From the NCBI GenBank assembly GCA_963825165.1, contig CAWGRY010000011.1:8642-72641 (forward strand): a stretch of DNA of 64,000 nucleotides, read 5' to 3'. The position numbers and the translations under genes are program-made. The stretch's first letter is position 1. Every line of letters starts with the position of its first letter. The notes under the pieces were generated by a model. The model saw nothing but the letters and a program-made list of their open reading frames with translations, did no database searches and was not told where the DNA came from. Of the stretch, positions 19,713-38,776 are shown in pieces. Source of the DNA: an uncultured Bacteroidales bacterium. GTDB taxonomy: Bacteria; Bacteroidota; Bacteroidia; Bacteroidales; VadinHA17.

Positions 19713-19776
19713 GTGAATGATGTAAATCATTTAAGGAATCGTGTAACGTTTATAAGGGTAAGGCGCTCTACCTTGT
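19713..19776 (+). promoter_or_regulatory. 64-bp conserved promoter module, copy 1 (upstream of the 19801 gene)
   Basis: GTGAAT(19713)-ga-TGTAAA-N15-TGTAAC(19742)-N22-ACCTTGT(19770). Spacing is identical to the other seven copies. Confidence 0.7.
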
Positions 19777-19800
19777 GCCCTCATATTGGAATTTCATATC

Positions 19801-21402
19801 ATGGGGAAAAAGATCTTTTTAAAAATCCTGGTGTCGACGGTTGTTCTGTTGTTGGTGGCAAAAATTATTGCCATAATTTTTATCGAGCCGTGGATCGGGG
19901 GGAAAATACGTGCGGAACTGAATAAGGCGGACAGAAATTACATCGTTGAAATAGACAAGATTAAAGTATTGCTGATCAGGCCGGGAATAGAAATGGCAGG
20001 TATATCAATATTCTCAAATCCGGAAGTTGCAGGAGAACGTGGTTTAAGTGGCGAAATAGCGTCTGTAAAATTGGCAGGCATCAATCTCACCCGGGCATTA
20101 TTTAAACATGATATCTATGTAAGGAAAGTGACCTTTTCCAATAGTATTATTAAGGGTAAAATTCCAAATTCGGGAAGAGCAGTACAACCGGTAGTTTCAC
20201 CTCTGAGTTTCGGCATAGGCAGAATGCTGTTTGACAGAATGAACCTCGAAATGGAAGACGATTCAACGGGTCAGACTTATTCAGTAAAGGACGGGATGCT
20301 TAAAGTTTACGATTTGCAAGTCGGGAAACTTGATACTTTGCTCCCCGGATCGTTAAAGCTATTTGATTTTAATGCAGGAGAGGTAATTCTGGTATCGTCT
20401 GACAAAATGTATTCTTATGTAATAAAGGGGCTCAGCTATCCCGCAAATCTGAATACCTTATTTATAGACAGCCTGTTTATTCGTCCGGGTTACAGGGATT
20501 ATGATTTCACATCAAGGTATCCATTTCAAACGAACCGTATCGAAGCCGGCTTCACCGGCATTTATATTCACGGTATTGAATATGACGGTGATTTCAGATC
20601 AATGAGACTGAAAAGCCCGTACATCGAAATCGGGCAGATGGACATGAAAGTATTTCGTGATAAGAGGAAAGAATTCCGGCATCTGAATAAGCCCGCCTTC
20701 CAGGATTTACTTTACGACTTTCCCCACCCTTTTATGATTGATTCAGTAATTCTTATGAAAGGGAATGTAGCTTTTACAGTGCATGGTGAAGAGGCAAACG
20801 AGCCCGGAATGATAAGATTTAATGAAATCCATGCCAGGCTTTACAAATTAACAAACGACACCATCTACAAAACAGAAAAAGCCTTTTTGGAAATCAAAGC
20901 TGATGCCCTGTTAATGGGCAAAGGAAAGATGGCCGTTCATTTGAAAGAGAGAATATTTGACAACAGTAATACATTCTCACTGGAAGGTTCTCTTTCAGGT
21001 CTTGAAGCAAGTGAATTAAATCCCATCCTTGAGAAAAATGTATTTATTTATGCCACTTCCGGTAAAATAGATGAAATGAGTTTCACCTTCACTGCTGATA
21101 ATTACAGGTCAACAGGCAAAATGATAATGCTGTACCATGGGCTGGACATCGCAGTTAAGAACAGACAGACTGATGATACAACAGCGTTCAGAGAAAGATT
21201 TGTCTCATATATAGCCAACAGAAGAATACCGGATTCAAACCCTGTTAAGGGGGAAGACGTCAGAGAGGGGACAATAGATTATATAAGAGACCCTGAAAGA
21301 TCAGTTTTTCATTACTGCTTCCGATCTGTCCTGTCAGGAATTACTTCAACCCTGGCTGACGGCAACAAGAAAATGGAAGGCCGGCTGGCAGACAGGAGAT
21401 AA
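19801..21402 (+). CDS. Membrane-anchored hypothetical protein (AsmA/DUF748-like N-terminus, tentative)
   Basis: One N-terminal TM segment (KILVSTVVLLLVAKIIAIIF) followed by about 500 aa of beta-rich sequence. The ATG at 19801 lies downstream of module copy 1. Confidence 0.5.
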   Translation: MGKKIFLKILVSTVVLLLVAKIIAIIFIEPWIGGKIRAELNKADRNYIVEIDKIKVLLIRPGIEMAGISIFSNPEVAGERGLSGEIASVKLAGINLTRALFKHDIYVRKVTFSNSIIKGKIPNSGRAVQPVVSPLSFGIGRMLFDRMNLEMEDDSTGQTYSVKDGMLKVYDLQVGKLDTLLPGSLKLFDFNAGEVILVSSDKMYSYVIKGLSYPANLNTLFIDSLFIRPGYRDYDFTSRYPFQTNRIEAGFTGIYIHGIEYDGDFRSMRLKSPYIEIGQMDMKVFRDKRKEFRHLNKPAFQDLLYDFPHPFMIDSVILMKGNVAFTVHGEEANEPGMIRFNEIHARLYKLTNDTIYKTEKAFLEIKADALLMGKGKMAVHLKERIFDNSNTFSLEGSLSGLEASELNPILEKNVFIYATSGKIDEMSFTFTADNYRSTGKMIMLYHGLDIAVKNRQTDDTTAFRERFVSYIANRRIPDSNPVKGEDVREGTIDYIRDPERSVFHYCFRSVLSGITSTLADGNKKMEGRLADRR

Positions 21403-21444
21403 GTATTAAGGCTCTTTTCGCCTGTTTTTATTCCATTTTAATCC

Positions 21445-21508
21445 GTGAATTATGTAATAAGTATATACAATTATGTAACATTCTGTCAATAAATAACCAT
21501 CACCTTTA
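21445..21508 (+). promoter_or_regulatory. 64-bp conserved promoter module, copy 2 (upstream of the OMP at 21566)
   Basis: GTGAAT(21445)-ta-TGTAAT-N15-TGTAAC(21474)-N22-ACCTTTA(21502). Confidence 0.7.
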
Positions 21509-21565: not shown

Positions 21566-22132
21566 ATGAAAAAAACAATGAAATTTCTGATCGGATTAAT
21601 TACTGCGATTATGATTACGGGTGTTGTCAGTGCCCAGCACGGCAACGCACCTGCAGGGCACGTAACCATTGGGATAAAGGGCGGGCTGAATTTTTACAAC
21701 ATAAATAATGACAACAATACCAGTTACGACCAGAGAACTGGATATAATTTTGGTTTGCTTGGCCATATCCACCGCAACAGCCAGTGGGCATTTCAGCCTG
21801 AACTTGTATATTCCGCCCAGGGTGCAAAAAATTATAATCTGGGTTATATTAATATACCCGTCCTGATCCAGTATATGTTTGACAATGGATTCAGGATACA
21901 AGCCGGCCCGCAGCTAGGTTTTCTTGTCAGTTCAGACAATGATATTGATTATAATCCCGTTGACTTTGCATTAAGTGTTGGTGTGAGCTATGTAGTTCCA
22001 TCGACGGGGTTTGGTCTTGATTTAAGATATAATCATGGATTAAACGATATAAATAAAAGCAGTGAAGTAAAAGCAACCAACAGGGGAATTCAGTTTGGCC
22101 TGTTTTACCTTTTTGGCCATAACACAAGGTAG
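21566..22132 (+). CDS. Small outer-membrane beta-barrel protein (porin-family / OMP_b-brl-like)
   Basis: Signal peptide MKKTMKFLIGLITAIMITGVVSAQ, alternating beta-strand pattern, aromatic C-terminus (GIQFGLFYLF). Confidence 0.65.
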   Translation: MKKTMKFLIGLITAIMITGVVSAQHGNAPAGHVTIGIKGGLNFYNINNDNNTSYDQRTGYNFGLLGHIHRNSQWAFQPELVYSAQGAKNYNLGYINIPVLIQYMFDNGFRIQAGPQLGFLVSSDNDIDYNPVDFALSVGVSYVVPSTGFGLDLRYNHGLNDINKSSEVKATNRGIQFGLFYLFGHNTR

Positions 22133-22563
22133 TCCTCTGAAAGCCCTTGCTTTCGCTGAATCTTTTTATATCATTGAACTTGCCTGCCAGTACAGTGACA
22201 TCTTTTTTCCCGAGTGGTATATTAACACCATAAGACAGATCGGTTTTGTAGTTCCTCCTGAAGACAGAAGTAAAAACTCTCTCTTTTGGAGGAATTTTTA
22301 CAGCTATTAAATCCTTTCACCGGACATTTCTGTTTGCGGCTCAGGACCTCATGGGAAGTGCGCGGCTGAATGACTCAATCATCCAGTTATCGGATACGAT
22401 TTTTATTAAAGTCAGAAACATAGCGGGAACATAGGTGTTATATTTCTGGTGTGCATGGAAGCTTCTATCCTGGATTTTTGAGTCAGAGGCTGGCAAGCGG
22501 CCTTTGGGATTTTCAAAAAAATCTTAAATTTGAAGAAGTAACTTTCCCTGTATACCCGGCATA

Positions 22564-23124
22564 TTGAAACTCTACATCAAAAATATGGTCAGCCTCCGTT
22601 GCATAATGCTGGTGAAATCGGAGTTGGAAAATCTGGGATTGCATTATGGTTCAGTTGAATTGTGCGAAGCTGAAATAACGGAGGATATTTCACCGGAGCA
22701 GCGCGAAGACCTCGCAATAGCACTCAAAAAGACCGGGCTTGAACTGATGCAGGACAAAAAGAACATCCTGGTTGAAAGAATAAAAGCAGTCATCATTGAC
22801 CTGGTGCATAATACCGATGAGCAGATCAAAATAAACCTATCCGACCACCTGAGCCAAAAACTCAATCACAATTACACCTATCTGGGAAATCTTTTTTCAG
22901 AGGTAAAGGGGGTTACCATTGAGAAGTTTTACCTGTCGCACAAAATTGAAAAGGCAAAGGAACTGCTGATATATGATGAACTTAATCTCACCGAAATAGC
23001 CTGGAAACTGCACTACAGCAGTGTAGCCCACCTTTCAAACCAGTTCAGGAAGATGACAGGGCTTACACCCTCCCAGTTTAAGAAACTGAAGAACAAAAAG
23101 CCCCGGGCTCTGGAAGATGTGTGA
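22564..23124 (+). CDS. AraC-family transcriptional regulator with a small HMA-like N-terminal domain that lacks CxxC
   Basis: C-terminal HTH_18 pattern (LTEIAWKLHYSSVAHLSNQFRKMTGLTPSQFKK). The N-terminus reads KNMVSLRCIMLVKSELENLGL. Its TGA stop lies inside the GTGAAT box of module copy 3. Confidence 0.75.
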   Translation: MKLYIKNMVSLRCIMLVKSELENLGLHYGSVELCEAEITEDISPEQREDLAIALKKTGLELMQDKKNILVERIKAVIIDLVHNTDEQIKINLSDHLSQKLNHNYTYLGNLFSEVKGVTIEKFYLSHKIEKAKELLIYDELNLTEIAWKLHYSSVAHLSNQFRKMTGLTPSQFKKLKNKKPRALEDV

Positions 23125-23184
23125 ATGATGTAACTTTTTCCTGAAATAATGTAAAGTTTCTCAGAATAAAGGATTTCAACTTTG
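23121..23184 (+). promoter_or_regulatory. 64-bp conserved promoter module, copy 3 (upstream of the small ORF and the kai operon)
   Basis: GTGAAT(23121)-ga-TGTAAC-N15-TGTAAA(23150)-N22-AACTTTG(23178). Confidence 0.65.
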
Positions 23185-23221
23185 TATTGTAATTTGGAAT
23201 CACTTTATACCGACTTTGTCC

Positions 23222-23371
23222 ATGATCATGAAAGCAAGAGATGATTTACTTACTGAGGACTTTAAAGTCCGATCAAAGCTAAAGTATGCCATTTTGATTT
23301 CCTACAGCCTTTCAATGTGCGTATGTTTAGTATTGGGCTCTATTATTTTTTTGATAGCCAGATTAACGTAG
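23222..23371 (+). CDS. Possible 49-aa single-TM peptide (below the ORF-track size cutoff)
   Basis: ATG 38 nt after module copy 3. Translates to MIMKARDDLLTEDFKVRSKLKYAILISYSLSMCVCLVLGSIIFLIARLT*. No homology known to me. Confidence 0.3.
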   Translation: MIMKARDDLLTEDFKVRSKLKYAILISYSLSMCVCLVLGSIIFLIARLT

Positions 23372-23545
23372 TGTCAGTATTAATCCGGATAATCTGGTTT
23401 ATTGCCAAAAACTGACTAATTATAATAGTCGGTGACTTTAATCAGTTTTAACTGATCATTAGACCAGGAAAAGCCGGAATTTAGCGCTTGTTGTATAGCG
23501 ATACATTGCCCGTAATCTAATATGACTTTATGTAATTGATAATAA

Positions 23546-25279
23546 ATGAAAAAAGCAGACCGCAAACCGGCAATTAAAAATCTTCACAAGTCTCCCACCG
23601 GGATCCAGGGATTTGATGAAATTACTGGCGGTGGATTGCCGGCAGGCAGACCATCCCTCGTATGCGGTGGAGCAGGATGCGGAAAGACACTTTTCGGATT
23701 AGAGTATCTTGTGCGGGGTGCAACTCAGTTTAATGAACCGGGTGTATTTATGTCATTCGAGGAAACCAATGAAGAAATAATACAAAATGTTGCTTCACTG
23801 GGCTTCGATCTGGAAGACCTTATTAAAAATAAAAAAATTGCACTTGATCATGTTCATATTGAACGCAGTGAAATAGAAGAAACCGGTGAATACGACCTGG
23901 AAGGTTTATTCATACGCCTTAATTTTGCTATTGATTCCATTGGGGCAAAGCGTGTTGTTCTTGATACGATTGAATCACTGTTTGCCGGATTGCCAAATCA
24001 GCTCATACTGCGCGCTGAACTGCGGCGATTGTTTCGCTGGCTAAAAGAAAAAGGTGTTACTGCAATCATAACAGGTGAGCGCGGAGGGGAGACCCTTACC
24101 AGACAGGGGTTGGAAGAGTATGTTTCAGACTGCGTTATTATGCTCGACCATCGTGTTACAGAGCAGACTTCCACACGTCGTTTACGGGTAGTTAAGTACC
24201 GTGGTTCCTTGCATGGGACAAATGAGTATCCGTTTCTGATTGATGAAAGCGGTTTTTCAGTTTTACCGGTGACTTCGCTGGGGTTAGAACATATTGTATC
24301 AAACAAAAGAGTCTCAAGTGGTATAAAAGCGCTTGACAATATGCTTGAAGGAAAAGGTTATTACCGCGGCAGCACGGTACTGGTTTCAGGCACTGCGGGA
24401 GTAGGAAAAACAAGTGTTGCAGCTCACTTTGCAGAGGCGGCATGTAAACGTGGTGAACGTGTACTATATTTCTGTTTTGAAGAATCTCCAAACCAGTTGA
24501 TGCGCAATATGCGTTCCATTGGAATAAAATTGGAGCACTGGGTGCAGAAAGGACTTCTTCAATTTCAGGCTACCCGGCCAACATTTTACGGCCTTGAAAT
24601 GCATCTGGCAGTAACTCACAAAGCTGTAAAATCATTTAAGCCTGATGTTGTCATTCTGGACCCAATAAATACTTTCATCCTGGGTGATAAGGTAAACGAA
24701 GTGAAAACGATGCTGATGCGTATTGTCGATTTTCTTAAGTTGAATCAAATTACAGCCTTGTTTACCAGCCTGACCTCAACCGAGAGGGCACTGGAAAGCT
24801 CCGATGTCGGCATATCATCTCTTATAGATACCTGGCTATTACTTCGCGAAATCGAATTAAACGGTGAACGGAACAGGGGAATGTATGTTCTTAAATCGCG
24901 CGGCATGGCTAATTCTAACCAGATCCGCGAATTCATTCTCACTAATCACGGCGTGGAATTACGTGAGGCTTATATTGGTGCCAGTGGAGTTTTAACCGGC
25001 TCAGCCCGTATTGCACAGGAAGCTCTTGAAAATGCCGAAGTTTTAACCCGTAAACAGGATATTGAACGAAAAAAACGTGAACTGGAACGAAAGCGAAAGG
25101 CAATGGAGGCTCAGATTGCTTTATTGAATGCCGATTTTAAGTCAGCAGAATCCGAAGCTGTTAAAATGATAAAAGCTGAACAGGACATGATTAAACGACT
25201 GGAACAGGATAAAATAGAAATGGCAGTCAGCAGAAAATCTGTTTCCGAAAACAGGAAAACCAGCAAATTGAAAAGATAA
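23546..25279 (+). CDS. kaiC: KaiC homolog (double RecA-like ATPase) with a roughly 78-aa charged coiled-coil C-terminal extension
   Basis: CI Walker A GGAGCGKT with FMSFEE; CII Walker A GTAGVGKT with FCFEES. ISSLIDT aligns with the ISTITDT phosphosite segment of cyanobacterial KaiC. The tail reads RKQDIERKKRELERKRKAMEAQIALL... Confidence 0.9.
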   Translation: MKKADRKPAIKNLHKSPTGIQGFDEITGGGLPAGRPSLVCGGAGCGKTLFGLEYLVRGATQFNEPGVFMSFEETNEEIIQNVASLGFDLEDLIKNKKIALDHVHIERSEIEETGEYDLEGLFIRLNFAIDSIGAKRVVLDTIESLFAGLPNQLILRAELRRLFRWLKEKGVTAIITGERGGETLTRQGLEEYVSDCVIMLDHRVTEQTSTRRLRVVKYRGSLHGTNEYPFLIDESGFSVLPVTSLGLEHIVSNKRVSSGIKALDNMLEGKGYYRGSTVLVSGTAGVGKTSVAAHFAEAACKRGERVLYFCFEESPNQLMRNMRSIGIKLEHWVQKGLLQFQATRPTFYGLEMHLAVTHKAVKSFKPDVVILDPINTFILGDKVNEVKTMLMRIVDFLKLNQITALFTSLTSTERALESSDVGISSLIDTWLLLREIELNGERNRGMYVLKSRGMANSNQIREFILTNHGVELREAYIGASGVLTGSARIAQEALENAEVLTRKQDIERKKRELERKRKAMEAQIALLNADFKSAESEAVKMIKAEQDMIKRLEQDKIEMAVSRKSVSENRKTSKLKR

Positions 25280-25295
25280 TTAAATCAGGAACCCT

Positions 25296-25637
25296 ATGAA
25301 ACTAAAAAAAGAAAATTCAGGTAAAAAACTCAAAAAAGGGAAACCGGCTAACAAGGCAGATGATAAGTGGGTGCTTCGTTTATACGTTGCAGGTCAGTCT
25401 CCAAAAGCTCTTACCGCATTGGCAAATCTGAAAAAAATATGTGCAGAACAATTAGAAGGGAAATACGGCATTGAAGTAATTGACCTTTTGATAAACCCGC
25501 AATTGGGTAAAGAGGATCAGATTCTTGCGTTGCCAACCTTAGTAAGAAAATTGCCGGTGCCTGTTCGTAAGATAATAGGCGATCTCTCAGATACTGAACG
25601 TGTTCTTGTCGGATTGGATTTGAAGGCAGTCAATTGA
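25296..25637 (+). CDS. kaiB: KaiB homolog, copy 1, with a Lys-rich N-terminal extension
   Basis: [85 protein letters not shown], a close match to the canonical KaiB pattern. Confidence 0.88.
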
Positions 25638-25662
25638 TATTTAAATACAAAAATTATCAGTC

Positions 25663-26016
25663 ATGACGATGAAAGAGAAAAAAGCGAAAGGATCAATAAC
25701 AAAGGTTGATCTGGCAATGTCTGAGTTTGACAAGGACAAATATATTCTGCGCTTATATATCACTGGTACAACGAATCGGTCCGTCCTGGCTCTTTCGAAC
25801 CTGAAGAAGATTTGCGAAGAGTATCTTGAAGGGCGATACGAACTGGAAGTGATTGACCTGTATCGGATGCCATCCCTGGCAAAAGATGAACAGATAATTG
25901 CGGCTCCTACATTGATAAAAAAGCTGCCGCTTCCGTTCCGTCGCATTATTGGCGATATGTCAGATGTAGAAAAAGTACTTATGGGGTTAGACCTCAGAAA
26001 GATAAAAGCCCTGTAA
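25663..26016 (+). CDS. kaiB: KaiB homolog, copy 2 (tandem paralog)
   Basis: YILRLYITGTTNRSVLALSNLKKICEEYLEGRYELEVIDLYRMPSLAKDEQIIAAPTLIKKLPLPFRRIIGDMSDVEKVLMGLDL. Confidence 0.88.
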   Translation: MTMKEKKAKGSITKVDLAMSEFDKDKYILRLYITGTTNRSVLALSNLKKICEEYLEGRYELEVIDLYRMPSLAKDEQIIAAPTLIKKLPLPFRRIIGDMSDVEKVLMGLDLRKIKAL

Positions 26017-26052
26017 AATTTTGAGGAATTTTAGCACATTTGATTTAATATA

Positions 26053-26775
26053 ATGACTTCAATGACCAAAACAAGAGAACAGCTCATAACTGAGAATGGC
26101 GAATTGCATTCCCGACTGGCTGAAACTATAGAAACGCTTTCAGCAATTCAAAGAGGTGATGTGGATGCTATTGTGGTGTCTGGTACCAATGGAGAACAAG
26201 TCTACTCGATCAGCTCTGCTGAAACACCTTACCGTACTTTCATAGAAGAAATGAACGAGGGAGCAGTTACTCTTTCCAGAAAAGGGATAATTATCTATTG
26301 TAATCAGAGATTTGCTGATTTTGTGTGCGAACCTGTTGAGCATGTAATTGGTTCGTACTTTAAGCGTTTCATTATCCCAAATGATAAATCAAAATTTGAA
26401 AAAGCACTTACTCAAAAAACTGATAATGAAAATAATGTTCTGATAATTTCACTGGTCAACTCATTATATCTGAAACTATCCTTTCAGATTTTACCTGCTT
26501 ATCTGCAGGGTGATTATTGCATACTGGTAGCTACTGACGTATCAGAAATTAAGAAGGAAGCGAAAAAACTCTTTGAATTATCCGGCTTATTGGAACAAAA
26601 ATTAGGTGTAATACAGCGGTTACGGATGCAACTTGTTGACAGAGCGATTGATCTAAAAGTAGAAATAAACAAATTCAGGAAAACCAATAAGAAACTGGTA
26701 ATGGAGATCGCAAAACATAAGCTGGTCGAAACTTCCTTAAAACAAAAACTAAAGCAAAAGAAGGCGACAGCTTGA
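26053..26775 (+). CDS. PAS-domain protein flanked by coiled coils, with no kinase or other output domain
   Basis: LSAIQRGDVDAIVVSG..GEQVYSISSAETPYRTFIEEMNEGAVTLSRKGIIIYCNQRFADF is a PAS pattern typical of sensor kinases. The C-terminal 70 aa are heptad-like, and the protein ends at 240 aa. Confidence 0.7.
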   Translation: MTSMTKTREQLITENGELHSRLAETIETLSAIQRGDVDAIVVSGTNGEQVYSISSAETPYRTFIEEMNEGAVTLSRKGIIIYCNQRFADFVCEPVEHVIGSYFKRFIIPNDKSKFEKALTQKTDNENNVLIISLVNSLYLKLSFQILPAYLQGDYCILVATDVSEIKKEAKKLFELSGLLEQKLGVIQRLRMQLVDRAIDLKVEINKFRKTNKKLVMEIAKHKLVETSLKQKLKQKKATA

Positions 26776-26781
26776 ATTTCA

Positions 26782-28536
26782 ATGAAAAGACTTTTATTCA
26801 TTCTCCTTGCGTTCCTCTTGCTTAACAGTTGCGCCATTATCCGGTTCCCTGAGTTTGGCAAGGTCCCCAAAAACCCGGGCAACTACCCGAAGTTTACTGA
26901 GAGGGATTACCTGATCGGAAAGCTTGACGAAGACCGCGCCGGCTATGATGTAACTTTCTATGATCTGGACCTTATCCTTGATCCGGATAACAGAAAGCTT
27001 GGGGGTAGGGTAGATATTCATTTTAAAGCACTGGCAGAGCTTAGCAAGATCCGCATTGACCTTTATAAAAATCTTGACATCATCAGCCTGAAGGTGTCGG
27101 GACAGGAGATCCCTTTTTCACGAAATGACAGGGCAGTGATAGCATCTCTTCCTGATCCATTGGTTATTGGACGGGACTATACTATTATTGTCGAGTACGA
27201 TGGTAAACCAACCAGCGCAAAAAATCCCCCATGGAGCGGCGGTATGGTATGGAAAAAAGACGGGAATGACAACCCCTGGGTCGGTGTGACATGCGAAACG
27301 GAAGGGGGCAGCATCTGGTTTCCCTGCAAGGACCACCTTTCCGATGAACCCGACAGTGTCAGGCTCCGCATGACTGTTCCTGAAGGATTGCAGGTTGTTT
27401 CAAACGGTAAAATGAAGAGCCATACGTCAAATACTGGGAGTGAAACATTTACATGGGGCACCAATTATCCTGTCAATATCTACAATATGACCTTCTATGC
27501 AGGGAAATTTGCACATTTCAGCGACACAATGCTTACTCCGCAAGGCATCCTTAACCTTAACTATTATGTTTTGCCCCAAAACCTGGAAAGAGCAAAAAAG
27601 CAATTTGTACAGGTAAAGGATATTATCAATCTCTATGCCAGGTCTTTCGGACCCTACCCGTGGATTAATGATGGATTCCGGCTTGTTGAGGCACCATTTG
27701 AAGGAATGGAGCATCAAACAGCTATAGCTTACGGAAGCGGCTTTTCAAACCGGGCATGGCTGGGAGGCGATTATGTAATCATACATGAAGCTGCCCATGA
27801 GTGGTGGGGTAATGCCGTATCAGTCAGCGACTTCAGCGATATATGGCTGCAGGAGGGATTTGCCACATACTCCGAAATGCTCTTTGCAGAACATAAAATG
27901 GGATACGAAAACTCGTTGTTGTATGCCAGGTACTTTATAGCCGGCTCGATAAAGAATAAACTGCCGGTTGTGGGTCCTGCGAGTGTCAGCTATTGGAACA
28001 GCAGGGACAATGATGTATACAATAAGGGAGCCATGGTGCTGCACACAATACGTAACGTCCTGAACGACAGCACTCTTTTCTTTGATATACTGCAGACATT
28101 CTATCATGAGCATGCATTATCATCGCATGTGACAACCACCGATTTCAAAGAGGTTGTTGAGAGGAAGACTGGGAAGGACTGGGATAAATTCTTTGAAGCA
28201 TACCTTTACCGCCGCGAGGTTCCGGTTCTTTACTGGTATTATGACCCTGCCGGCATAGATGAAGGTTACCCAACGGCTGAAAAGAATGTGGTGCCCGTTA
28301 TTGCGGCAAAATGGCTGAATGCTCCTGATGGCTTCAGCATGCCTGTTGAATTATATTGTAAGGAAGAGAATGTCTCATTTAGGATAGAGGTGACAACAAA
28401 ACCAACACTTTTTTACTTTGAGGATATGACAGGATGCGGTAAGCTGATCTGTAATAAGAAACTTTCTTACTGCGATGCTGTGACGGATATCAGCGTGCTG
28501 GCTGAAGCCAGGTCTTCCGGAACGGGAGATCAATAA
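26782..28536 (+). CDS. M1-family metallopeptidase (aminopeptidase N-like) lipoprotein
   Basis: Lipobox LLLNSC, HEAAHEWWG zinc motif (HExxH) and downstream WLQEGFATYSE. It starts 6 nt after the PAS gene stop. Confidence 0.8.
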   Translation: MKRLLFILLAFLLLNSCAIIRFPEFGKVPKNPGNYPKFTERDYLIGKLDEDRAGYDVTFYDLDLILDPDNRKLGGRVDIHFKALAELSKIRIDLYKNLDIISLKVSGQEIPFSRNDRAVIASLPDPLVIGRDYTIIVEYDGKPTSAKNPPWSGGMVWKKDGNDNPWVGVTCETEGGSIWFPCKDHLSDEPDSVRLRMTVPEGLQVVSNGKMKSHTSNTGSETFTWGTNYPVNIYNMTFYAGKFAHFSDTMLTPQGILNLNYYVLPQNLERAKKQFVQVKDIINLYARSFGPYPWINDGFRLVEAPFEGMEHQTAIAYGSGFSNRAWLGGDYVIIHEAAHEWWGNAVSVSDFSDIWLQEGFATYSEMLFAEHKMGYENSLLYARYFIAGSIKNKLPVVGPASVSYWNSRDNDVYNKGAMVLHTIRNVLNDSTLFFDILQTFYHEHALSSHVTTTDFKEVVERKTGKDWDKFFEAYLYRREVPVLYWYYDPAGIDEGYPTAEKNVVPVIAAKWLNAPDGFSMPVELYCKEENVSFRIEVTTKPTLFYFEDMTGCGKLICNKKLSYCDAVTDISVLAEARSSGTGDQ

Positions 28537-28587: not shown

Positions 28588-28651
28588 GTGAATTATGTAA
28601 TTATTTCTCAAAATAATGTAACGGTTTGCCAGACCGGGTGGTGTATTTTTA
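28588..28651 (+). promoter_or_regulatory. 64-bp conserved promoter module, copy 4 (upstream of the 28731-31836 gene string)
   Basis: GTGAAT(28588)-ta-TGTAAT-N15-TGTAAC(28617)-N22-ATTTTTA(28645). Confidence 0.7.
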
Positions 28652-28730: not shown

Positions 28731-29060
28731 ATGAAAAAGTTTGCTTTTTGTTTAATGGCGACAGTGTTGTCATTAACTTTTATCCCACTTTCATTAAGCG
28801 CTGCACCCAGGGCCGCGCCTTCCTCATCGGCTAACACCAATCCCGTAAGCCCGGCAGATGCTGCTAAAGCTAACGAATTACTGCTCAGGTTAAACGAAAT
28901 TAAGACATCGGACAAATCTGAACTGACAGCGTCAGAAAAGAAGGAACTGCGAAAAGAGGTTCGTTCAATCAGCAGTGAACTTAAGGCAGTAAGTGGCGGC
29001 ATTTACATTTCAGCAGCCGTACTGCTTATTATTGTTATTCTGTTAATCGTTCTGTTGTAA
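28731..29060 (+). CDS. Hypothetical secreted, C-terminally TM-anchored protein
   Basis: Signal peptide MKKFAFCLMATVLSLTFIPLSLSAA, a charged helical middle region, and a C-terminal TM segment (ISAAVLLIIVILLIVLL). Confidence 0.5.
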   Translation: MKKFAFCLMATVLSLTFIPLSLSAAPRAAPSSSANTNPVSPADAAKANELLLRLNEIKTSDKSELTASEKKELRKEVRSISSELKAVSGGIYISAAVLLIIVILLIVLL

Positions 29061-29080
29061 AAAATTAAAAATAAAGATCA

Positions 29081-29235: not shown

Positions 29236-29373
29236 GTCAATCGTTATATAAATAATCATTAAGTCCACTCTGAAAACTTCCTGTGTAATCTCTTCTGGCT
29301 GAAATACAAACTGATCAGTTATTGGGGTTTAAAACAGGATAATCCGGGACGGGCTTACTAAATTAAAGAAATC

Positions 29374-29652
29374 ATGAGCTCAGGAAAAGTAGTATTAGCA
29401 TTATTGGCCGGCGTCGCTGCCGGTGCAGTGTTAGGGATTCTGTTTGCCCCGGAAAAGGGGTCTGAAACACGAAAAAAGATAGCCGGAGAAGGAAATGACC
29501 TCAAGGAATCGATGAAAGAAAAATTCAACCAGTTTCTTGATGACATATCTGAAAAATATGAAAATGTAAAGGAAGAAGTTACTGATCTTACTGAAAAGGA
29601 CAAGACGACAAAAGACGAGGCTGACAAGAAAGCAAAGACTGCTCCGGGTTAA
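29374..29652 (+). CDS. YtxH-domain protein
   Basis: GKVVLALLAGVAAGAVLGILFAPEKGSETRKKIA is the characteristic YtxH N-terminus, followed by a charged helical tail. Confidence 0.65.
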   Translation: MSSGKVVLALLAGVAAGAVLGILFAPEKGSETRKKIAGEGNDLKESMKEKFNQFLDDISEKYENVKEEVTDLTEKDKTTKDEADKKAKTAPG

Positions 29653-29688
29653 TAACCGTCAGGGGATAAGATCATCACTAATGATATT

Positions 29689-30042
29689 ATGACCAGGGGC
29701 ATGGAAGACAATGTAAAAGTACTGGAGGATCTGCTGGAGAAAGTCACTGAATACGGCAAGACGGAATTTCAGTTGGCTAAACTTAAAATCCTGGATAAAA
29801 CATCGGACGCTGTTTCTACAGTCGTGCCTCACCTGATCGTGATTGTCCTGGCCTTGATTTTTTTGCTTTTTGTCAACCTGGGCATTGCCTTCTGGCTGGG
29901 AGGTATTCTGGGTAGTATCTATTATGGATTTTTTGCAGTAGCTGCTTTTTATGGAATCACGACTCTTGTCTTACGTCTCTTTATGTATAAATGGCTCAAA
30001 AGACAGGTCGGCAATTACATCATCAGGCATGTGCTTAAATAA
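29689..30042 (+). CDS. Holin-X / 'phage holin family' type two-TM membrane protein
   Basis: N-terminal amphipathic helix (VLEDLLEKVTEYGKTEFQLAKLKILDK) followed by two TM segments. The size and layout match proteins annotated as Phage_holin_3_6 in Bacteroidota. Confidence 0.5.
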   Translation: MTRGMEDNVKVLEDLLEKVTEYGKTEFQLAKLKILDKTSDAVSTVVPHLIVIVLALIFLLFVNLGIAFWLGGILGSIYYGFFAVAAFYGITTLVLRLFMYKWLKRQVGNYIIRHVLK

Positions 30043-30048
30043 AATTGT

Positions 30049-30447
30049 ATGCAAAAAATAACTTCAACAGCGGCCCTTAAAGAAGCAATTCAATTACTGG
30101 AAGCGGAGAAGGCTGCCAGCAGAAAACTGTTGAAAGTGCAATTCGTCAGCACCTATGAAAGTTTCAAACCAGCCAGCCTGCTCCGTAGTACGTTACAAGA
30201 TATTTCTTCATCGCCAAATCTGGTTGAAAATATCATTGGAACGGCCCTGGGTTTAGGTGCCGGATATCTTTCAAGAAGTATCCTGCCGGGAGTAACCGCG
30301 ATGAGGTTTGGGAAACTTCTCGGCCCTGTTTTGCAGCTCGGCGTTATAAAAGTTGTCTCTAAGCAATCCGGCAATCTCAGGTCATTGGGAGAAGTTGCCC
30401 TTCTTCGTATTTTCCGTAAAAAAAGAGTTAAAATACGGAAGCCGTGA
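30049..30447 (+). CDS. Hypothetical protein
   Basis: 132-aa ORF packed tightly between the holin-like gene and the AI-2E gene. No domain recognised. Confidence 0.45.
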   Translation: MQKITSTAALKEAIQLLEAEKAASRKLLKVQFVSTYESFKPASLLRSTLQDISSSPNLVENIIGTALGLGAGYLSRSILPGVTAMRFGKLLGPVLQLGVIKVVSKQSGNLRSLGEVALLRIFRKKRVKIRKP

Positions 30448-30465
30448 CACTTCAATCCAGGTGCC

Positions 30466-31587
30466 ATGACAAATGAAGGGCTGAAACTACCGGCGTATAT
30501 TAAGGTGAGCATTTTGTTAATTGGAATTGCGGTTCTGTTGACAATGCTCTACATTGCAAGGAGCATCCTTGTACCTGTGGTTTTCGCAACCATTTTAGCC
30601 ATAGTACTCCATCCGGTAGTAAACTTCTTTATAGAGAAAAAAGTTAACAGAGTTTTAGCAATCATCTTAACAATGTTGCTGACCTTTCTGGTAATAGCAG
30701 CAATTGGAGCGCTTATCTTTTCGCAGGCAAGCCGCTTGGGTGATTCATTGCCCGTACTGGCTGACAAATTCAACGAGATGATTAACCAGGCCATCACCTG
30801 GGTTTCCGGCCACTTCGATATAAACACTCACAAGTTAAATGATTGGATCATAAAAGTCCGGGGTGAACTAATTAATTCCAGCAGCGCTATGATCGGAAAC
30901 ACCCTTGTCTCCCTCGGCAACCTGTTAATAGTGATTTTTTTGATCCCGGTTTACATCTTTATGCTCTTGTTTTACAATCCGATCCTGATTGAGTTTATTC
31001 ACAGGCTCTTTAGCTCAGGACAGCAGAGCAAGGTGAGCGCAATAGTTACTGAGACAAAGACAGTTATTCAGCGATATCTCGTCGGCCTGATCATTGAGGC
31101 TGGAATAGTAGCTGCTATGAACACCATTGCTCTTCTGGCTCTCGGGATTGAATATGCTCTGCTACTCGGTATTATAGGCGCATTGCTGAATATCATTCCT
31201 TATATAGGAGGATTGGTTGCGGTAGCATTACCGATGCTCGTCGCCTTGATCACCAAGGAATCCGGATGGTACCCCGTTTATATTATGGTGATATACTATA
31301 TCATCCAGCTTATTGACAACAATTACATCGTTCCCAAAATAGTTGCTTCAAAAGTAAAACTCAATGCGCTGTTCTCCCTTCTGGTGGTTTTTGCGGGTAA
31401 TGCATTATGGGGGATTCCCGGCATGTTTATCTCCATACCGCTGCTGGCCATAGTAAAACTTGTCTGTGACCACGTCGAACCTCTGAAGCCATGGGGCTTC
31501 CTGTTAGGAGATACCATGCCATCTCCTCTTAAGATCAAATCTATTTTTAAGAAACACACTACCCGGGTTGGTAAAACCAAAACCTGA
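30466..31587 (+). CDS. AI-2E family transporter (PerM/YhhT-like permease)
   Basis: 373 aa with about 8 TM segments and the family-typical C-terminal region (IPYIGGLVAVALP...DNNYIVPKIV...GIPGMFISIPLLAIVK). Confidence 0.75.
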   Translation: MTNEGLKLPAYIKVSILLIGIAVLLTMLYIARSILVPVVFATILAIVLHPVVNFFIEKKVNRVLAIILTMLLTFLVIAAIGALIFSQASRLGDSLPVLADKFNEMINQAITWVSGHFDINTHKLNDWIIKVRGELINSSSAMIGNTLVSLGNLLIVIFLIPVYIFMLLFYNPILIEFIHRLFSSGQQSKVSAIVTETKTVIQRYLVGLIIEAGIVAAMNTIALLALGIEYALLLGIIGALLNIIPYIGGLVAVALPMLVALITKESGWYPVYIMVIYYIIQLIDNNYIVPKIVASKVKLNALFSLLVVFAGNALWGIPGMFISIPLLAIVKLVCDHVEPLKPWGFLLGDTMPSPLKIKSIFKKHTTRVGKTKT

Positions 31588-32532: not shown

Positions 32533-32596
32533 CAAAGATGAACCCTGTTTCGAGAAACAGAGTTACATCTTTCGATGAAAGAATTACATAATTCAC
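32533..32596 (-). promoter_or_regulatory. 64-bp conserved promoter module, copy 8 (minus strand, upstream of 32488)
   Basis: Read on the minus strand: GTGAAT(32596)-ta-TGTAAT-N15-TGTAAC(32567)-N22-ATCTTTG(32539). Confidence 0.7.
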
Positions 32597-34157: not shown

Positions 34158-34221
34158 GAAAGGTAGGGCTCTGACAGATTACAAGCGTTATACAAAAAGA
34201 TATATGATTTACATGATTCAC
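34158..34221 (-). promoter_or_regulatory. 64-bp conserved promoter module, copy 7 (minus strand, upstream of the OmpA-like gene)
   Basis: Read on the minus strand: GTGAAT(34221)-ca-TGTAAA-N15-TATAAC(34192)-N22-ACCTTTC(34164). Confidence 0.65.
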
Positions 34222-34342
34222 ACATAAATAAGCTTCAAATCCTCATTCATAAAACGTGAGTTTGAATTCTTTTGTTCAAATGGGCAGGTACTACGCTGAT
34301 ACGGCAAAAGCATTAACGACCAATGACCGTCAGGTCAAATGT

Positions 34343-34406
34343 GTGAATGATGTAACTTATTTCCAGTGTTATGTAACACATTTTGGCATCAGCGGATCAA
34401 CCTTTG
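34343..34406 (+). promoter_or_regulatory. 64-bp conserved promoter module, copy 5 (upstream of mlaE)
   Basis: GTGAAT(34343)-ga-TGTAAC-N15-TGTAAC(34372)-N22-ACCTTTG(34400). The mlaE ATG is at 34423. Confidence 0.7.
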
Positions 34407-36798: not shown

Positions 36799-36829
36799 TC
36801 TCCAGGATATAAAACATTAATAATGGTAA

Positions 36830-38677
36830 ATGCAGGTATCTCTCAAAAATATTTTCTTGCTTTTTGTTTTGTCATTTTTAATAAGTGATCCTGCAAGTGC
36901 TCAGCAAACACCTGTCAAAACAGATTCCACCAGCCTTTATAAGAATATTGAAACCTATTCCAGACAAAGCAAATTTAAAACATTTGTCTACAGGCTGATC
37001 TTCAAACCGGCTACCCCGGAAACAAAGAACAAAGCAGTCAGGAAGAAGACATATAAAAACCTGATACAGAAGCCATACGGTACCTTTGAAGGGAAAATCA
37101 TCAGGAATATTAATGTTGTAACTTTCGATCCTTTTGGTTACTCGGTAACTGACACGATTGTTGCAAACCAAAATTTCGTGCTTAAGGCGGGAAACGGAGT
37201 GCATATAAAAACACGTGGTTTAGCGATCCGGAACCTGCTGCTTTTCCATAAGAATCAACCTTTCAATTCGCTGCTGGTGAAGGAATCTGAGCGCCTGATC
37301 AGGGCACAGAAATATGTTCATGACGTCGCTTTTTCAATTATAGCAACCGGGGAAGATTCTGATTCAGTAGATGTCTTTATCCGTGAACTGGACAGATGGA
37401 GCATAACCCCGGCAGGTACTGCTTCAAACAGAAGAATGACCGCCAGCATAACCGACATTAACTTTTTGGGATCAGGTCATGAGTTTCAAAATACCTTTTC
37501 AAGGAATTTCATCACCGGTGTTAATTCATTTAATACTGATTATTTCATCCCGAATATCCGGAACACCTGGATAAACGCAAAGCTTCATTATGGCTTTGAC
37601 GGGAACGGAAATTTTACAAGGGGTCTGGCTGTTGACCGTCCGTTTTTTTCTCCCCTGGCTAAGTGGGCAGCAGGCGTGATCGTCCTGTCTGAGTTTAAGG
37701 AAGACACCCTGAATGCCATAAATCCGGACTTTGTCCCTTATAGTTTAAGATTCAATACACAGGATGTCTGGGCAGGAAAAGCGATACGGATCTTTCAAAA
37801 CGGCAGGGATGATGAACTTATCTCCAATTTAATTTTTACGGCACGATACCTGCGGGTCCGCTTTTCTGAAAAACCACTGGCACAAAATGATCCGTTCCAT
37901 ATTTATTCCGATGAAGATTTTTATCTGGGCAGCATAGGTATTACTTCCCGGAAATATGTTCAGGATAAATTAATCTTCAAATTTGGTGTTATCGAAGATG
38001 TGCCGGAAGGGAGAGTCTTTAACCTGACAGCCGGCTACCAGGTAAGAAACAATACCGGGCGTCTCTATTTAGGGATGCGCTTTTCATTTGGCAACTATCA
38101 TGAATGGGGTTACCTGAGCTCAAACATTGAATATGGAACTTTTTTTAATGCATCACATGCTGAACAGGGGATATTTACCGCGGGTATAAGTTATTCCACA
38201 GTATTATTCAAGATCGGGAAATGGAATTTCAGACAATTTGTAAAACCTCAGATGACTATCGGCATAAACTGGTTTCCCTACGATAGTTTGACACTTAATG
38301 ATGGCGGTGGACTGGAGGGATTTAAGAGCCCTGTCCTCTCAGGAACAAAGCGTCTGCTACTTACTTTGCAGACACAATCGTACGCCCCCTGGAGTTTTCT
38401 CGGATTTCGTTTTGGGCCCTTTCTTAATTGTTCTTTTGGAATGATTGGCGATGATGCAGGCGGGTTAAAAAACAGCAAAGTGTATTCACAATTAGGGCTG
38501 GGAGTTATGATTAATAATGAACACCTGGTTTACAGTACATTCCAGGTATCAATTTCATTTTACCCGTCAATCCCGGGTATCGGCCGGGGAATTTTCAGAA
38601 TGAATTCAATCAGGACAACTGATTTCGGATTCAGGGATTTTGAAATTGAAAAACCGGGAAGGATACAATATCAATAA
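36830..38677 (+). CDS. Outer-membrane protein, Omp85/BamA-like (tentative)
   Basis: Signal peptide ending SDPASAQQ, a POTRA-like N-terminal region (GKIIRNINVVTFDPFGY...) and about 400 aa of beta-barrel-like sequence. Co-oriented directly after mlaD. Confidence 0.45.
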   Translation: MQVSLKNIFLLFVLSFLISDPASAQQTPVKTDSTSLYKNIETYSRQSKFKTFVYRLIFKPATPETKNKAVRKKTYKNLIQKPYGTFEGKIIRNINVVTFDPFGYSVTDTIVANQNFVLKAGNGVHIKTRGLAIRNLLLFHKNQPFNSLLVKESERLIRAQKYVHDVAFSIIATGEDSDSVDVFIRELDRWSITPAGTASNRRMTASITDINFLGSGHEFQNTFSRNFITGVNSFNTDYFIPNIRNTWINAKLHYGFDGNGNFTRGLAVDRPFFSPLAKWAAGVIVLSEFKEDTLNAINPDFVPYSLRFNTQDVWAGKAIRIFQNGRDDELISNLIFTARYLRVRFSEKPLAQNDPFHIYSDEDFYLGSIGITSRKYVQDKLIFKFGVIEDVPEGRVFNLTAGYQVRNNTGRLYLGMRFSFGNYHEWGYLSSNIEYGTFFNASHAEQGIFTAGISYSTVLFKIGKWNFRQFVKPQMTIGINWFPYDSLTLNDGGGLEGFKSPVLSGTKRLLLTLQTQSYAPWSFLGFRFGPFLNCSFGMIGDDAGGLKNSKVYSQLGLGVMINNEHLVYSTFQVSISFYPSIPGIGRGIFRMNSIRTTDFGFRDFEIEKPGRIQYQ

Positions 38678-38712
38678 TCTTAGCGCAGGGAAATGCCAGC
38701 GTCTTTAAATGT

Positions 38713-38776
38713 GTGAATCTTGTAATTCTTTGTTATAGTTATGTAACAGGTACAGACTGACACCTTACTACCTTTG
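38713..38776 (+). promoter_or_regulatory. 64-bp conserved promoter module, copy 6 (upstream of the M48 peptidase)
   Basis: GTGAAT(38713)-ct-TGTAAT-N15-TGTAAC(38742)-N22-ACCTTTG(38770), preceded by T to give TACCTTTG. Confidence 0.7.

Follow-up and report, generated by a model that had tools for sequence, protein, structure and literature searches.

Eight copies of a rigidly spaced intergenic DNA module, the gene for a small AraC-type protein, a kaiC-kaiB-kaiB operon and genes for envelope proteins and peptidases lie together in the window, i.e. the whole stretch of 64,000 nt that was analysed (Table 1). On both strands of the window, the pattern GTGAAT-N2-TGTAA-N16-TRTAAM has exactly eight matches, six on the plus and two on the minus strand, at the very positions where an initial annotation of this DNA had placed eight copies with exactly fixed spacing; none of 100 dinucleotide-preserving shuffles of the window contained a match (0 expected vs. 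8 observed). The third box reads TGTAAC in six of the eight copies and TGTAAA or TATAAC in one each, a recount that agrees with the earlier tally, and a last element, A-n-(C/T)-T-T, stands exactly 22 nt 3' of the third box in all eight. In a matrix built from these eight sites, their own scores range from 64 to 77 bits, as against 5.9 bits for the runner-up in the 64 kb; neither this matrix nor a phylum-wide one yielded a ninth copy in the window. All eight copies are, as was originally stated, intergenic and oriented toward a gene. The likely start codon follows the module end after 16-79 nt for the copies other than that of kaiC, whose start lies 361 nt past the module end, the small ORF beginning after 31 nt.

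Table 1. Module copies, associated genes and candidate regulatory proteins in the window.
Feature	Position	Strand	Downstream gene(s) or content	Evidence
Module copy 1	19713..19776	+	538-aa protein, family not recognised (19786/19801-21402)	Pattern, matrix
Module copy 2	21445..21508	+	Outer-membrane beta-barrel protein (ATG 21566-22132)	Pattern, matrix, Pfam
Candidate activator	22564..23124	+	186 aa; HMA-like N-domain and AraC/XylS DNA-binding domain	Pfam HTH_18, alignments, AF2/Foldseek, linkage
Module copy 3	23121..23184	+	Small ORF (23216-23371), then kaiC (23546-25279)	
Genes after kaiC	25296-25637; 25663-26016; 26053-26775; 26782-28536	+	kaiB; kaiB; PAS protein; M1 peptidase	
Module copy 4	28588..28651	+	Gene string 28731-31587	
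Copy-4 gene string	28731-31587		109-aa protein without recognised family, DUF5670, YtxH, holin-X-like, 132-aa protein without recognised family, AI-2E transporter	
Module copy 5	32533..32596	-	203-aa protein, family not recognised (32488-31877)	
Module copy 6	34158..34221	-	OmpA/glycine-zipper (34106-33435) and OMP beta-barrel (33384-32692)	
Module copy 7	34343..34406	+	mlaE, mlaF, mlaD, 615-aa protein without recognised family (to 38677)	
Module copy 8	38713..38776	+	M48 peptidase (38805-39608)	
CheB-CheR-PAS fusion protein and small PAS protein	39839..43319	+	Possible signal-input proteins	Role inferred

The gene labels first assigned proved correct, except for 'AsmA-like' (19786-21402) and 'Omp85-like' (36830-38677), which found no support in Pfam, NCBIfam, PDB sequence search or BLASTP. 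Copies 6 and 7 are mutually divergent, the true start of mlaE is probably the ATG at 34423, and a strong terminator-like hairpin (32669-32644) lies between copy 5 and the upstream OMP gene. The gene string behind copy 4, in which a 69-aa ORF is possibly also included, is found after modules in other members of the phylum.

A 20-base pattern scanned over 185,579 species genomes matches at least 120 genomic stretches, and among the matches listed nearly all are from Bacteroidota, spread over several orders and classes. A rescan of the 120 loci listed gave 207 sites, on which the phylum-wide counts are based. For the sites from these loci, the spacing between boxes is invariant (N2 in 170/170, N16 in 187/187), and from the third box to the last element it is N22 in 116 sites vs. 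N21 in 6. Across the 207 sites, conservation extends to positions that the pattern left unspecified, namely AATGT at -4 to 0, A8, T15, T18, A25, T27-28, A36, C60, T63 and G64. The conserved block thus exceeds the 64 bp originally given, as it also comprises a preceding AAATGT, AATT and a T-rich stretch in the interval from box 2 to box 3, and the A that follows TGTAAC. As many as 182 of the 207 sites (88%) are intergenic, compared to 20% of random 64-mers; the start codon lies at a median of 43 nt downstream of module position 70. The contiguous regulon of about 20 kb proposed at the outset would be one clustered instance of a phylum-wide regulon, not the whole of it.

The occurrence of several clustered copies per genome could also be that of a dispersed repeat or mobile miniature element devoid of regulatory function, a reading whose probability is practically nil. 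The boxes alone are conserved, spacers and flanks differing in every copy, the copies keep a set orientation and distance relative to start codons, as in promoters, and the conservation holds over several Bacteroidota orders and classes, by which a mobile element is effectively refuted. Nor is there a hairpin signal or two-column covariation. Likewise for a structured RNA, no paired covariation was detected among the 207 sites, and nothing in Rfam matched 19000-40000 at E<=1. The same pattern of divergence is seen at close range: between the window and two related contexts, L121 and L122, boxes are kept and spacers and leader diverge, as for copy 3, whose boxes persist in both with a divergent leader; an orthologue of copy 1 is present in L121.

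In Bacteroidota, primary-sigma promoters carry a -33 TTTG element about 19 nt 5' of the -7 box. The consensus of the latter, TAnnTTTG at -12 to -5 (PMC9723704), is fitted except at its first T by the 3' element of the module, yAnCTTTG, in agreement with the Bacteroidota-type -7 box first recognised in the window copies. Phylum-wide, its conservation amounts to 99% for A58, 71% for C60, 100% for T61-T62, 88% for T63 and 68% for G64, A58, T61 and T62 being fixed by the search pattern in the site retrieving each locus; the first T of the TA is poorly conserved (33% T, 44% C), which counts against reading the element as a -7 box. Start codons follow this box at the distance expected for such a promoter. 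The initial annotation had also remarked on the lack of a normal -33 element, and across the 207 sites TTTG is indeed not conserved, positions 35-41 reading C-A-c-t-t-n-n with a weak TT at 38-39. Directly 5' of the -33 position, at about -41 to -35, stands TGTAACA, and 22 nt separate the end of TGTAAC from the A of the -7 box. Such rigid spacing fits direct contact with polymerase, and the missing -33 element fits a promoter needing an activator.

Upstream of the -7 box, positions 4-14 (AATnATGTAAC) and 25-35 (AaTTrTGTAAC) can be read as two direct repeats with a 21-bp period. The distal site, AATGTGTGAATnATGTAAC, which can also be written AATGTGTGAAT-n-ATGTAAC, is a strong one; next to the -35-equivalent comes the weaker proximal site, (n)AaTT-r-TGTAAC. 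Only 8-9 bp separate the starts of boxes 1 and 2, for which reason two tandem bipartite sites are preferred here over the three repeats on one helix face envisaged earlier. A tandem pair of direct repeats spaced at 21 bp, of which the proximal overlaps the -35 region, is the classic layout of AraC I1-I2, XylS and RhaS, so that the module has the layout of a candidate class II tandem operator of the AraC/XylS type. The recognition helices of AraC-type domains are usually about 10.5 bp apart, and the shorter offset of boxes 1 and 2 counts against this assignment.

Two other readings of the same architecture have to be weighed. In the first, an alternative sigma factor would take TGTAAC as its -35 and CTTTG as its -10, the upstream boxes being accessory. 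The AAC within TGTAAC is typical of -35 elements of ECF sigma factors, and a distribution over the whole phylum, such as the element has, is frequent among sigma regulons. ECF promoters, however, have a conserved -10 (often CGT) 16-17 nt after an AAC-containing -35, and here the information content 16-17 nt after TGTAAC is 0.05-0.27 bits, the next conserved base being 22 nt off, too far for promoters of this type. In addition, the 3' element resembles a primary-sigma -7 box, and no sigma-factor family appears among the top 25 first-downstream Pfam families or the annotated neighbour clusters, which makes this reading very unlikely. In the second, the AraC protein or another factor would repress an otherwise constitutive promoter until stress. 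Some AraC-family proteins do repress, and occupancy of the proximal box, which abuts the polymerase-binding region, could occlude polymerase; repression nevertheless seems improbable, as the lack of a full -33 TTTG argues for a weak bare promoter, the rigid phasing of distal sites about 60-75 bp upstream is typical of activation, and MarA, SoxS and Rob, which are small stand-alone AraC-family proteins, are activators. An activator-dependent primary-sigma promoter is thus the reading retained.

The candidate for the activator is the 186-aa protein encoded upstream of copy 3. It starts at TTG (MKLYIKNMVSLRC...), and its stop codon is the TGA within the GTGAAT of that copy. Its C-terminus matches Pfam HTH_18 (1.6e-17) and also HTH_AraC, with PDB sequence matches to 3oou, 3lsg and 6swi, and the AF2 model of this part has seven helices, for which Foldseek retrieved AraT, YesN, MarA, SoxS, Rob and AdpA; these roughly 100 residues, with their two helix-turn-helix motifs, are a genuine AraC DNA-binding domain. 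No named and characterised orthologue group was found, all NCBIfam scores being far below cut-offs; the best 120 of more than 8000 homologous clusters bear no more than a generic AraC-family name, and some homologues are labelled 'YesN/AraC family two-component response regulator' at JGI.

The N-domain, 60 residues followed by a linker helix, is modelled by AF2 (pLDDT 88.5) as beta-alpha-beta-beta-alpha-beta, an HMA-like ferredoxin fold. Among its 12 top Foldseek matches, 11 are HMA proteins (probability 0.96-1.0, TM 0.58-0.68, E-values only 0.02-0.06), and its match to Pfam HMA is sub-threshold (E 0.16-0.62), so the predicted structure points to an HMA-like fold. Metal binding is doubtful, because the MxCxxC motif is absent, the window protein having MVSLRC, and because in the family alignments R-C alone is invariant in the motif, the first Cys being often Ser or Thr.

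The adjacent AraC protein had been the first suspect of the initial annotation, and its family turns out to be the one DNA-binding family that recurs in the annotated neighbour gene clusters. Full-length homologues with 50-73% identity occur in 24 of the 120 loci listed, more than for any other window gene; these loci were fetched by DNA pattern alone, and this part of the linkage evidence thus comes from loci chosen for having the module. In 19 of 33 copies, the AraC stop codon lies inside box 1, an arrangement seen across orders, and in 8 of 33 a module lies 91-326 bp upstream of the AraC gene, which suggests autoregulation; in the window itself, no module precedes the AraC gene. Conversely, when contexts were selected solely by identity of the protein (L121, L122, L124 and L126, all fairly close relatives with 73-96% identity), the module was found at the AraC stop codon in 4/4, with 1-6 further modules nearby.

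The AraC linkage could be mere conserved regulon membership, the module being a real promoter/operator bound by another factor, i.e. a kinase-fed response regulator or a regulator encoded elsewhere. The AraC genes with a module upstream are placed like ordinary regulon members, and PAS/kinase/receiver genes form the largest neighbour cluster (74 proteins in 32 loci), a separate 143-aa receiver being often encoded beside the AraC homologue. Yet the receivers examined lack a DNA-binding output, occurring either as separate 143-aa domains or within hybrid kinases, the annotated gene clusters show no second recurrent DNA-binding family, and the stop codon embedded in box 1 is most simply explained by a regulator kept beside its own site; control by another factor is therefore considered unlikely, with more weight than repression or an alternative sigma factor.

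Genes downstream of the module throughout the phylum include OmpA/glycine-zipper, CsbD, YtxH, Usp, CbpA/CbpM-like DnaJ with MerR_2, Mla, ice-binding-like and P-type ATPase proteins, besides BrkB and M48, OmpA/glycine-zipper being the commonest first gene after the module in the loci listed. The resemblance to stress and envelope regulons perceived in the window hence extends to the phylum. Such content is typical of general stress responses and, together with the linked AraC regulator, makes the module the mark of a candidate general stress regulon, to which kaiC-kaiB-kaiB would also belong in the lineage of the window.

Altogether, comparative genomics supports the core of the initial reading, and we consider it rather probable, from sequence comparison, that the module is an activator-dependent primary-sigma promoter whose tandem sites are bound by the AraC protein and which drives a stress/envelope regulon. 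Each copy would be a complete promoter for the Bacteroidota primary sigma factor, with yAnCTTTG as the -7 box and the two bipartite sites upstream; the small HMA-like/AraC protein would occupy both sites and recruit or activate RNA polymerase, as class II activators of the AraC/XylS/MarA type do, thereby turning on a regulon of stress and envelope genes, clustered in the window and conserved across the phylum. Input would probably come via the co-encoded PAS/hybrid-kinase/single-receiver and CheB-CheR-PAS proteins; proteins of the CheB-CheR-PAS and PAS types adjoin the AraC homologue, or share an operon with it, in other genomes. In this scheme, the module itself, its rigid spacing, conservation, placement and gene content, and its genomic linkage to the AraC family are observed; that the AraC protein binds it, that it activates and does not repress, where transcription starts and which signals feed in are what we infer. 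More speculatively, and with less than even confidence, the HMA-like/AraC activator on its two-site module could be the master switch of a phylum-wide general stress response of Bacteroidota, doing without the alternative sigma factor on which such responses are based in Firmicutes, Proteobacteria and Alphaproteobacteria, and fed by a PAS hybrid-kinase/single-receiver relay and CheB-CheR-PAS proteins, that drives, and is perhaps timed by, KaiC-KaiB-KaiB in some anaerobes.

Mechanistically, a transcription-factor site joined to a promoter is an ordinary object, and the value of the module resides in its breadth, its rigidity and the gap that it may fill in Bacteroidota stress biology. RpoS, sigma-B and EcfG, the classical sigma factors of general stress, are to our knowledge absent from Bacteroidota. 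The literature searched contained no description of the module, in keeping with the initial statement that no Bacteroidota regulon of such architecture was known, and no general stress regulator or regulon for this phylum. A 70-bp signature recognisable by eye, combined with a named candidate regulator, would allow regulon prediction in any Bacteroidota genome, would give a physiological context to many domains without assigned function (DUF5670, DUF6600 and the 109-, 127- and 132-aa families), and would yield promoter parts responsive to stress in a phylum whose expression signals are unusual. Besides, it would make an anaerobe's kaiC-kaiB-kaiB operon part of a defined transcriptional circuit.

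Among known systems, the AraC I1-I2, XylS, RhaS/RhaR and MelR promoters share with the module an AraC-type domain, two direct repeats with a 21-bp period, a proximal site at the -35-equivalent, a strong distal and a weaker proximal site, and rigid spacing to polymerase. They differ in that the module belongs to a promoter of the Bacteroidota -33/-7 type and has an unrelated operator sequence, the candidate regulator has an HMA-like domain and linker helix instead of a cupin or sugar-binding dimerisation domain, and a large regulon would be served rather than one catabolic operon. In Enterobacteria, MarA, SoxS and Rob control a dispersed stress regulon via asymmetric sites some 20 bp long, whose orientation and distance from the promoter are fixed (class I/II marboxes), MarA and SoxS having no sensor domain and being controlled by abundance. 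The window protein is, like them, a small AraC-family protein, and Foldseek matches their DNA-binding domains; sequence-level orthology to the three was not found, NCBIfam scores being far below cut-offs, and unlike MarA and SoxS, the system at hand has an additional N-domain, a tandem pair of sites and a recurring association with PAS kinases and receivers. YesN/AraT-type response regulators provide the best sequence and structure matches to the AraC DNA-binding domain (3lsg, 6swi), but the window protein carries the HMA-like N-domain in place of a receiver. Compared to the ordinary Bacteroidota -33/-7 promoter, yAnCTTTG (but for its first T) and the start-codon distance are common, whereas the conserved -33 TTTG is absent. 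Finally, the regulons of sigma-B in Bacillus, RpoS in Enterobacteria and EcfG/PhyR in Alphaproteobacteria overlap in content (CsbD, YtxH, Usp, OmpA/glycine-zipper, CbpA-CbpM-like DnaJ/MerR_2, membrane and envelope proteins), and the PAS/hybrid-kinase/single-receiver genes beside the AraC regulator are reminiscent of the kinase-PhyR input; those regulons are defined by an alternative sigma factor, whereas the module combines a primary-sigma-like -7 box with a transcription-factor-like site.

The initial annotation had counted by hand eight copies of the promoter module (boxes GTGAAT, TGTAA and TGTAAC followed by an A-n-n-TT element), and a pattern search of the 64-kb window with GTGAAT-N2-TGTAA-N16-TRTAAM returned precisely these copies at the same coordinates and on the same strands; none of 100 dinucleotide-preserving shuffles of the window contained a match. 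Once aligned, A-n-(C/T)-T-T lies exactly 22 nt 3' of the third box in all eight. Scored with their own matrix, the copies reach 64-77 bits, the runner-up site in the window being at 5.9 bits, and a matrix built from other genomes recovers the same eight sites and no others. Every copy is intergenic and aimed at a gene. Copies 6 and 7 form a divergent back-to-back promoter pair, with GTGAAT starts 122 bp apart, copy 6 serving OmpA/glycine-zipper and copy 7 mlaEFD. A strong terminator-like hairpin, with 10 pairs and a T-run, lies between copy 5 and the OMP gene, directly 3' of the latter, which favours an independent transcription unit for copy 5; this terminator was the only useful output of a sigma-70 consensus scan of the window, the consensus being uninformative for this phylum.

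Coordinates of the module copies and associated features in the window, with the distance between the end of each module and the probable start codon
Feature	Position	Strand	Distance (nt)	Remark
Module copy 1	19713	+	24	
Module copy 2	21445	+	57	
Module copy 3	23121	+	31	distance to small ORF; 361 nt to kaiC
Module copy 4	28588	+	79	
Module copy 5	32596	-	44	
Module copy 6	34221	-	51	
Module copy 7	34343	+	16	
Module copy 8	38713	+	28	
Divergent pair, copies 6 and 7	34158-34406			
rplL-rpoB-rpoC	792-9414			
ORF	19713-19925			spurious
538-aa protein	19786-21402			
OMP gene start	21566			ATG, probable
Region upstream of AraC gene	22132-22564			searched for a degenerate module; none found
AraC gene	22564-23124	+		186 aa
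AraC gene 3' end	23119-23126	+		GAT GTG TGA
kaiC leader	23185-23545			361 nt, from copy 3
51-aa ORF in kaiC leader	23216-23371			
kaiC-kaiB-kaiB-PAS-M1 peptidase	23546-28536			apparent operon behind a module
Terminator-like hairpin	32669-32644	-		
Longest mlaE ORF, first codon	34366			GTG, within copy 7
mlaE start	34423			ATG, probable
615-aa protein	36830-38677			
CheB-CheR-PAS fusion, then PAS protein	39839-43319			975 aa (39839-42766), then 182 aa; just 3' of last module-driven gene
7TMR-DISM histidine kinase	44988-47087	-		
P-type cation ATPase	51591-54050			no module in window

Beyond the window, a set of 185,579 genomes, each representing one species, was scanned for the 20 specified bases of GTGAAT-N2-TGTAA-N16-TGTAAC-N22-A-N2-TT, and at least 120 genomic stretches matched. 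Among the matches listed, record titles are almost all Bacteroidota, namely Bacteroidales, Prolixibacteraceae, Marinilabiliaceae, Lentimicrobiaceae, Chitinophagaceae, Saprospiraceae, Lewinellaceae, Flavobacteriaceae, Cytophagales and Sphingobacteriales, including two cultured isolates (Maribellus sp. YY47 and Carboxylicivirga sp. RSCT41), with one record each labelled Ignavibacteriae, FCB group and Syntrophales, the last a 3.7-kb MAG contig. The contigs labelled Syntrophales (L092) and Ignavibacteriae (L062) could owe their labels to misbinning; alternatively, the module could reach sister lineages of the FCB group.

When the 120 listed stretches (each of 8 kb at most) were rescanned with the window matrix, 228 sites exceeded 20 bits and 207 scored at least 28 bits, often two to seven per stretch. 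The consensus of the 207 reads aAATGTGTGAAT-n-ATGTAAc-TttTt-nnnn-aAaTT-r-TGTAACA-ctt-N18-yAnCTTTG; since part of it is fixed by the search pattern, the claim of conservation is limited to the free positions, among which AATGT before box 1, A8, T15, T18, A25, T27-28, A36, C60, T63 and G64 are strongly conserved. Spacing is rigid throughout these loci, i.e. N2 in 170/170 and N16 in 187/187 sites, with a last spacer of N22 in 116 vs. N21 in 6. Regarding the check proposed at the outset, whether matrix matches fall upstream of or inside genes, 182 of the 207 sites share no more than 12 bp with any ORF of 100 aa or longer, as do 20% of random 64-mers drawn from these loci, and the median distance from module position 70 to the start codon is 43 nt. 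The module is thus almost certainly a real, conserved promoter/operator, and a repeat or mobile element, the probability of which is negligible, was rejected on the intergenic bias and on the spacers and flanks, which vary from copy to copy. A structured RNA or riboswitch was likewise rejected: no covarying column pair exists among the module sites and the module region matches no Rfam family, so that the signal is read as DNA rather than RNA structure; an impression of a C14/G26 palindrome vanished in the full covariation table.

Among the 149 first-downstream ORFs of the 120 listed loci, scanned against Pfam, the commonest families are OmpA (13), ice-binding-like (9), glycine zippers (8), type-IX secretion tails (7), OMP beta-barrels (6), AraC HTH_18 (6), DUF748/AsmA (6), CsbD (5) and cupin (4), with rarer ones including YtxH and BrkB. 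Clustering of all ORFs of these loci, with annotation of the larger clusters, adds a P-type cation ATPase, a universal stress protein, a CbpA-like DnaJ with a CbpM-like MerR_2, GT4 and GH130 enzymes, a B12/radical-SAM enzyme, a low-affinity iron permease and PIG-L, and recovers as conserved the window's string 109-aa unknown-DUF5670-YtxH-holin-X-132-aa unknown-AI-2E. The stress-type gene content noted from the window alone is thereby matched elsewhere, and the gene set suggests a regulon of the general-stress or envelope-stress type. Homologues of the window's P-type cation ATPase adjoin the AraC gene or a module in three loci (L124, L118 and L066) and in one gene cluster of 11 members (cluster 7).

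The window itself, which carries rplL-rpoB-rpoC, is chromosomal, from a seemingly anaerobe-like uncultured Bacteroidota. Pfam upheld most of the gene labels first given to it (OMP beta-barrels, AraC HTH_18, KaiC, two KaiB, PAS, M1 peptidase, DUF5670, YtxH, holin-X-like, AI-2E, OmpA/glycine-zipper, MlaE/F/D and M48); no support for calling the 538-aa protein "AsmA-like" or the 615-aa protein "Omp85-like" came from Pfam, NCBIfam, PDB sequence search or BLASTP. Against the NCBIfam model PRK09302, whose cut-off is 408, KaiC reaches 746 bits. The probable mlaE start is preferred to that of the longest ORF because homologues align from residue 20. No Rfam match was found for the kaiC leader, which is kept together with its 51-aa ORF in a 96%-identity relative (L121) and not in a second relative (L122), for which reason no role is claimed for the small ORF; the kaiC-kaiB-kaiB-PAS-M1 peptidase operon stands 3' of the AraC gene in both relatives.

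Which protein reads the module? The tblastn search with every window protein against the 120 listed loci, which were fetched by DNA pattern alone, returned the AraC protein as the most frequent co-located window gene (26 full-length copies in 24 loci, at 50-73% identity), and the AraC family is the sole DNA-binding family among the annotated recurrent gene clusters, both of which speak for the adjacent AraC protein that the initial annotation had suspected first. The stop TGA of the window AraC gene is the TGA within GTGAAT of copy 3, and this overlap (G-TGA-AT, GTGAAT starting at the last codon) recurs in 19 of 33 AraC gene copies from several orders; the stop codon lying inside GTGAAT explains the conserved C-terminal (D/N)(V/M) residues. 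In another 8 of the 33 a module lies 91-326 bp upstream of the gene, which suggests that it may be autoregulated there. Two arrangements recur, AraC gene, module and regulon genes on the one hand, and module, AraC gene, hybrid PAS-HisKA-HATPase-receiver kinase and 143-aa stand-alone receiver on the other. At one locus (L044) a CheB-CheR-PAS fusion of the window's type takes the kinase's place directly 3' of the module-driven AraC homologue.

In a reciprocal test, contexts were fetched by protein identity only, the DNA motif being ignored, and all four independent ones (L121, L122, L124 and L126) carry a module at the stop codon and one to six more within 10 kb; as these proteins are 73-96% identical to that of the window, the test covers relatively close lineages only. 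When the region 3' of the AraC gene is aligned for the window, L121 and L122, the boxes are kept and the spacers and kaiC leader have diverged. In L121 (6100-9707 and 18996), trkA-trkH is inserted between the OMP and AraC genes, and two extra modules absent from the window lie at 6445 (minus strand) before a 71-aa gene and at 18996 before the 69-aa ORF. The metagenomic contig L126 holds three AraC-subfamily copies (5085-6327, 10001-10540), of which 5085-5614 is apparently frameshifted, one is module-driven and followed by PAS kinase, receiver and CsbD, and one has a module at its stop codon; these paralogues might read module subtypes. On the whole, it is rather likely that the module is bound and activated by the 186-aa AraC protein. 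That some other factor binds it, the AraC protein being merely a member of the regulon, is unlikely, and repression in place of activation, a reading that overlaps with the preferred one, appears quite improbable.

The AraC protein has more than 8000 homologue clusters, the best 120 listed bearing generic AraC-family names at most, and no specific NCBIfam or PDB relative was found beyond the generic AraC DNA-binding domain. Its AlphaFold2 (AF2) model (pLDDT 84) contains a seven-helix AraC domain matching AraT, YesN, MarA, SoxS, Rob and AdpA. A separate model of the N-terminal 85 residues (pLDDT 88.5) shows a beta-alpha-beta-beta-alpha-beta fold plus a long helix, and 11 of the 12 top structural matches are heavy-metal-associated domains, CopZ, Atx1, GolB, HAH1 and CopA among them, with high match probabilities (0.96-1.0) and TM of 0.58-0.68, at E-values of only 0.02-0.06; Pfam HMA is sub-threshold. 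Longer family members, as well as the window protein read from a TTG start, have an extra first strand, MK(L/I)YI(K/Q)(N/Y)-MV(C/S)xRC. The MxCxxC motif is not kept in the family, Arg-Cys being its sole invariant part; in the window protein, Ser replaces the first Cys. A weaker match to the CheY-binding P2 domain of CheA (1ffg_B, probability 0.75, TM 0.55), noted since a stand-alone receiver is often encoded beside the AraC gene, is far too weak to rely on.

Regarding the mechanism, a TTTG element at -33 is known from promoter studies in Bacteroides and Flavobacterium; at the corresponding position the module consensus has a weakly conserved TT and nothing more. The 3' element of the module would be the primary-sigma -7 box, fitting the TAnnTTTG reported at -12 to -5 in Flavobacterium (PMC9723704). 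With G64 at about -5 to -7, TGTAAC would fall at about -41 to -34, beside the expected -33 TTTG. The upstream part would comprise two bipartite sites with a 21-bp period, the strong AATGTGTGAAT-n-ATGTAAC and AaTT-r-TGTAAC with its weaker first half, and the rigid spacing up to the -7 box would fit direct contact with polymerase. A promoter read by an ECF or other alternative sigma factor is very unlikely given the spacing, the missing -10 signal (no conservation 16-17 nt after TGTAAC) and the annotated recurrent gene clusters of the 120 listed loci, which include no sigma factor. A LytTR-type regulator, which uses 9-bp repeats and was considered for its 21-bp period, was rejected as no such gene recurs among those annotated near modules.

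A search of openly accessible full-text literature turned up no description of the motif, of this subfamily of regulators or of any general stress regulon in Bacteroidota. The breadth and rigidity of the module, the unusual N-domain, the regulator stop codon inside the operator, and the links to kinases and KaiBC make an experiment worthwhile. By mechanism, the system would add one member to a familiar class, the AraC-family activators with tandem sites: in AraC I1-I2, XylS, RhaS and MelR the sites stand in tandem with the proximal one touching polymerase, an arrangement which the two-site module, by analogy, would resemble.
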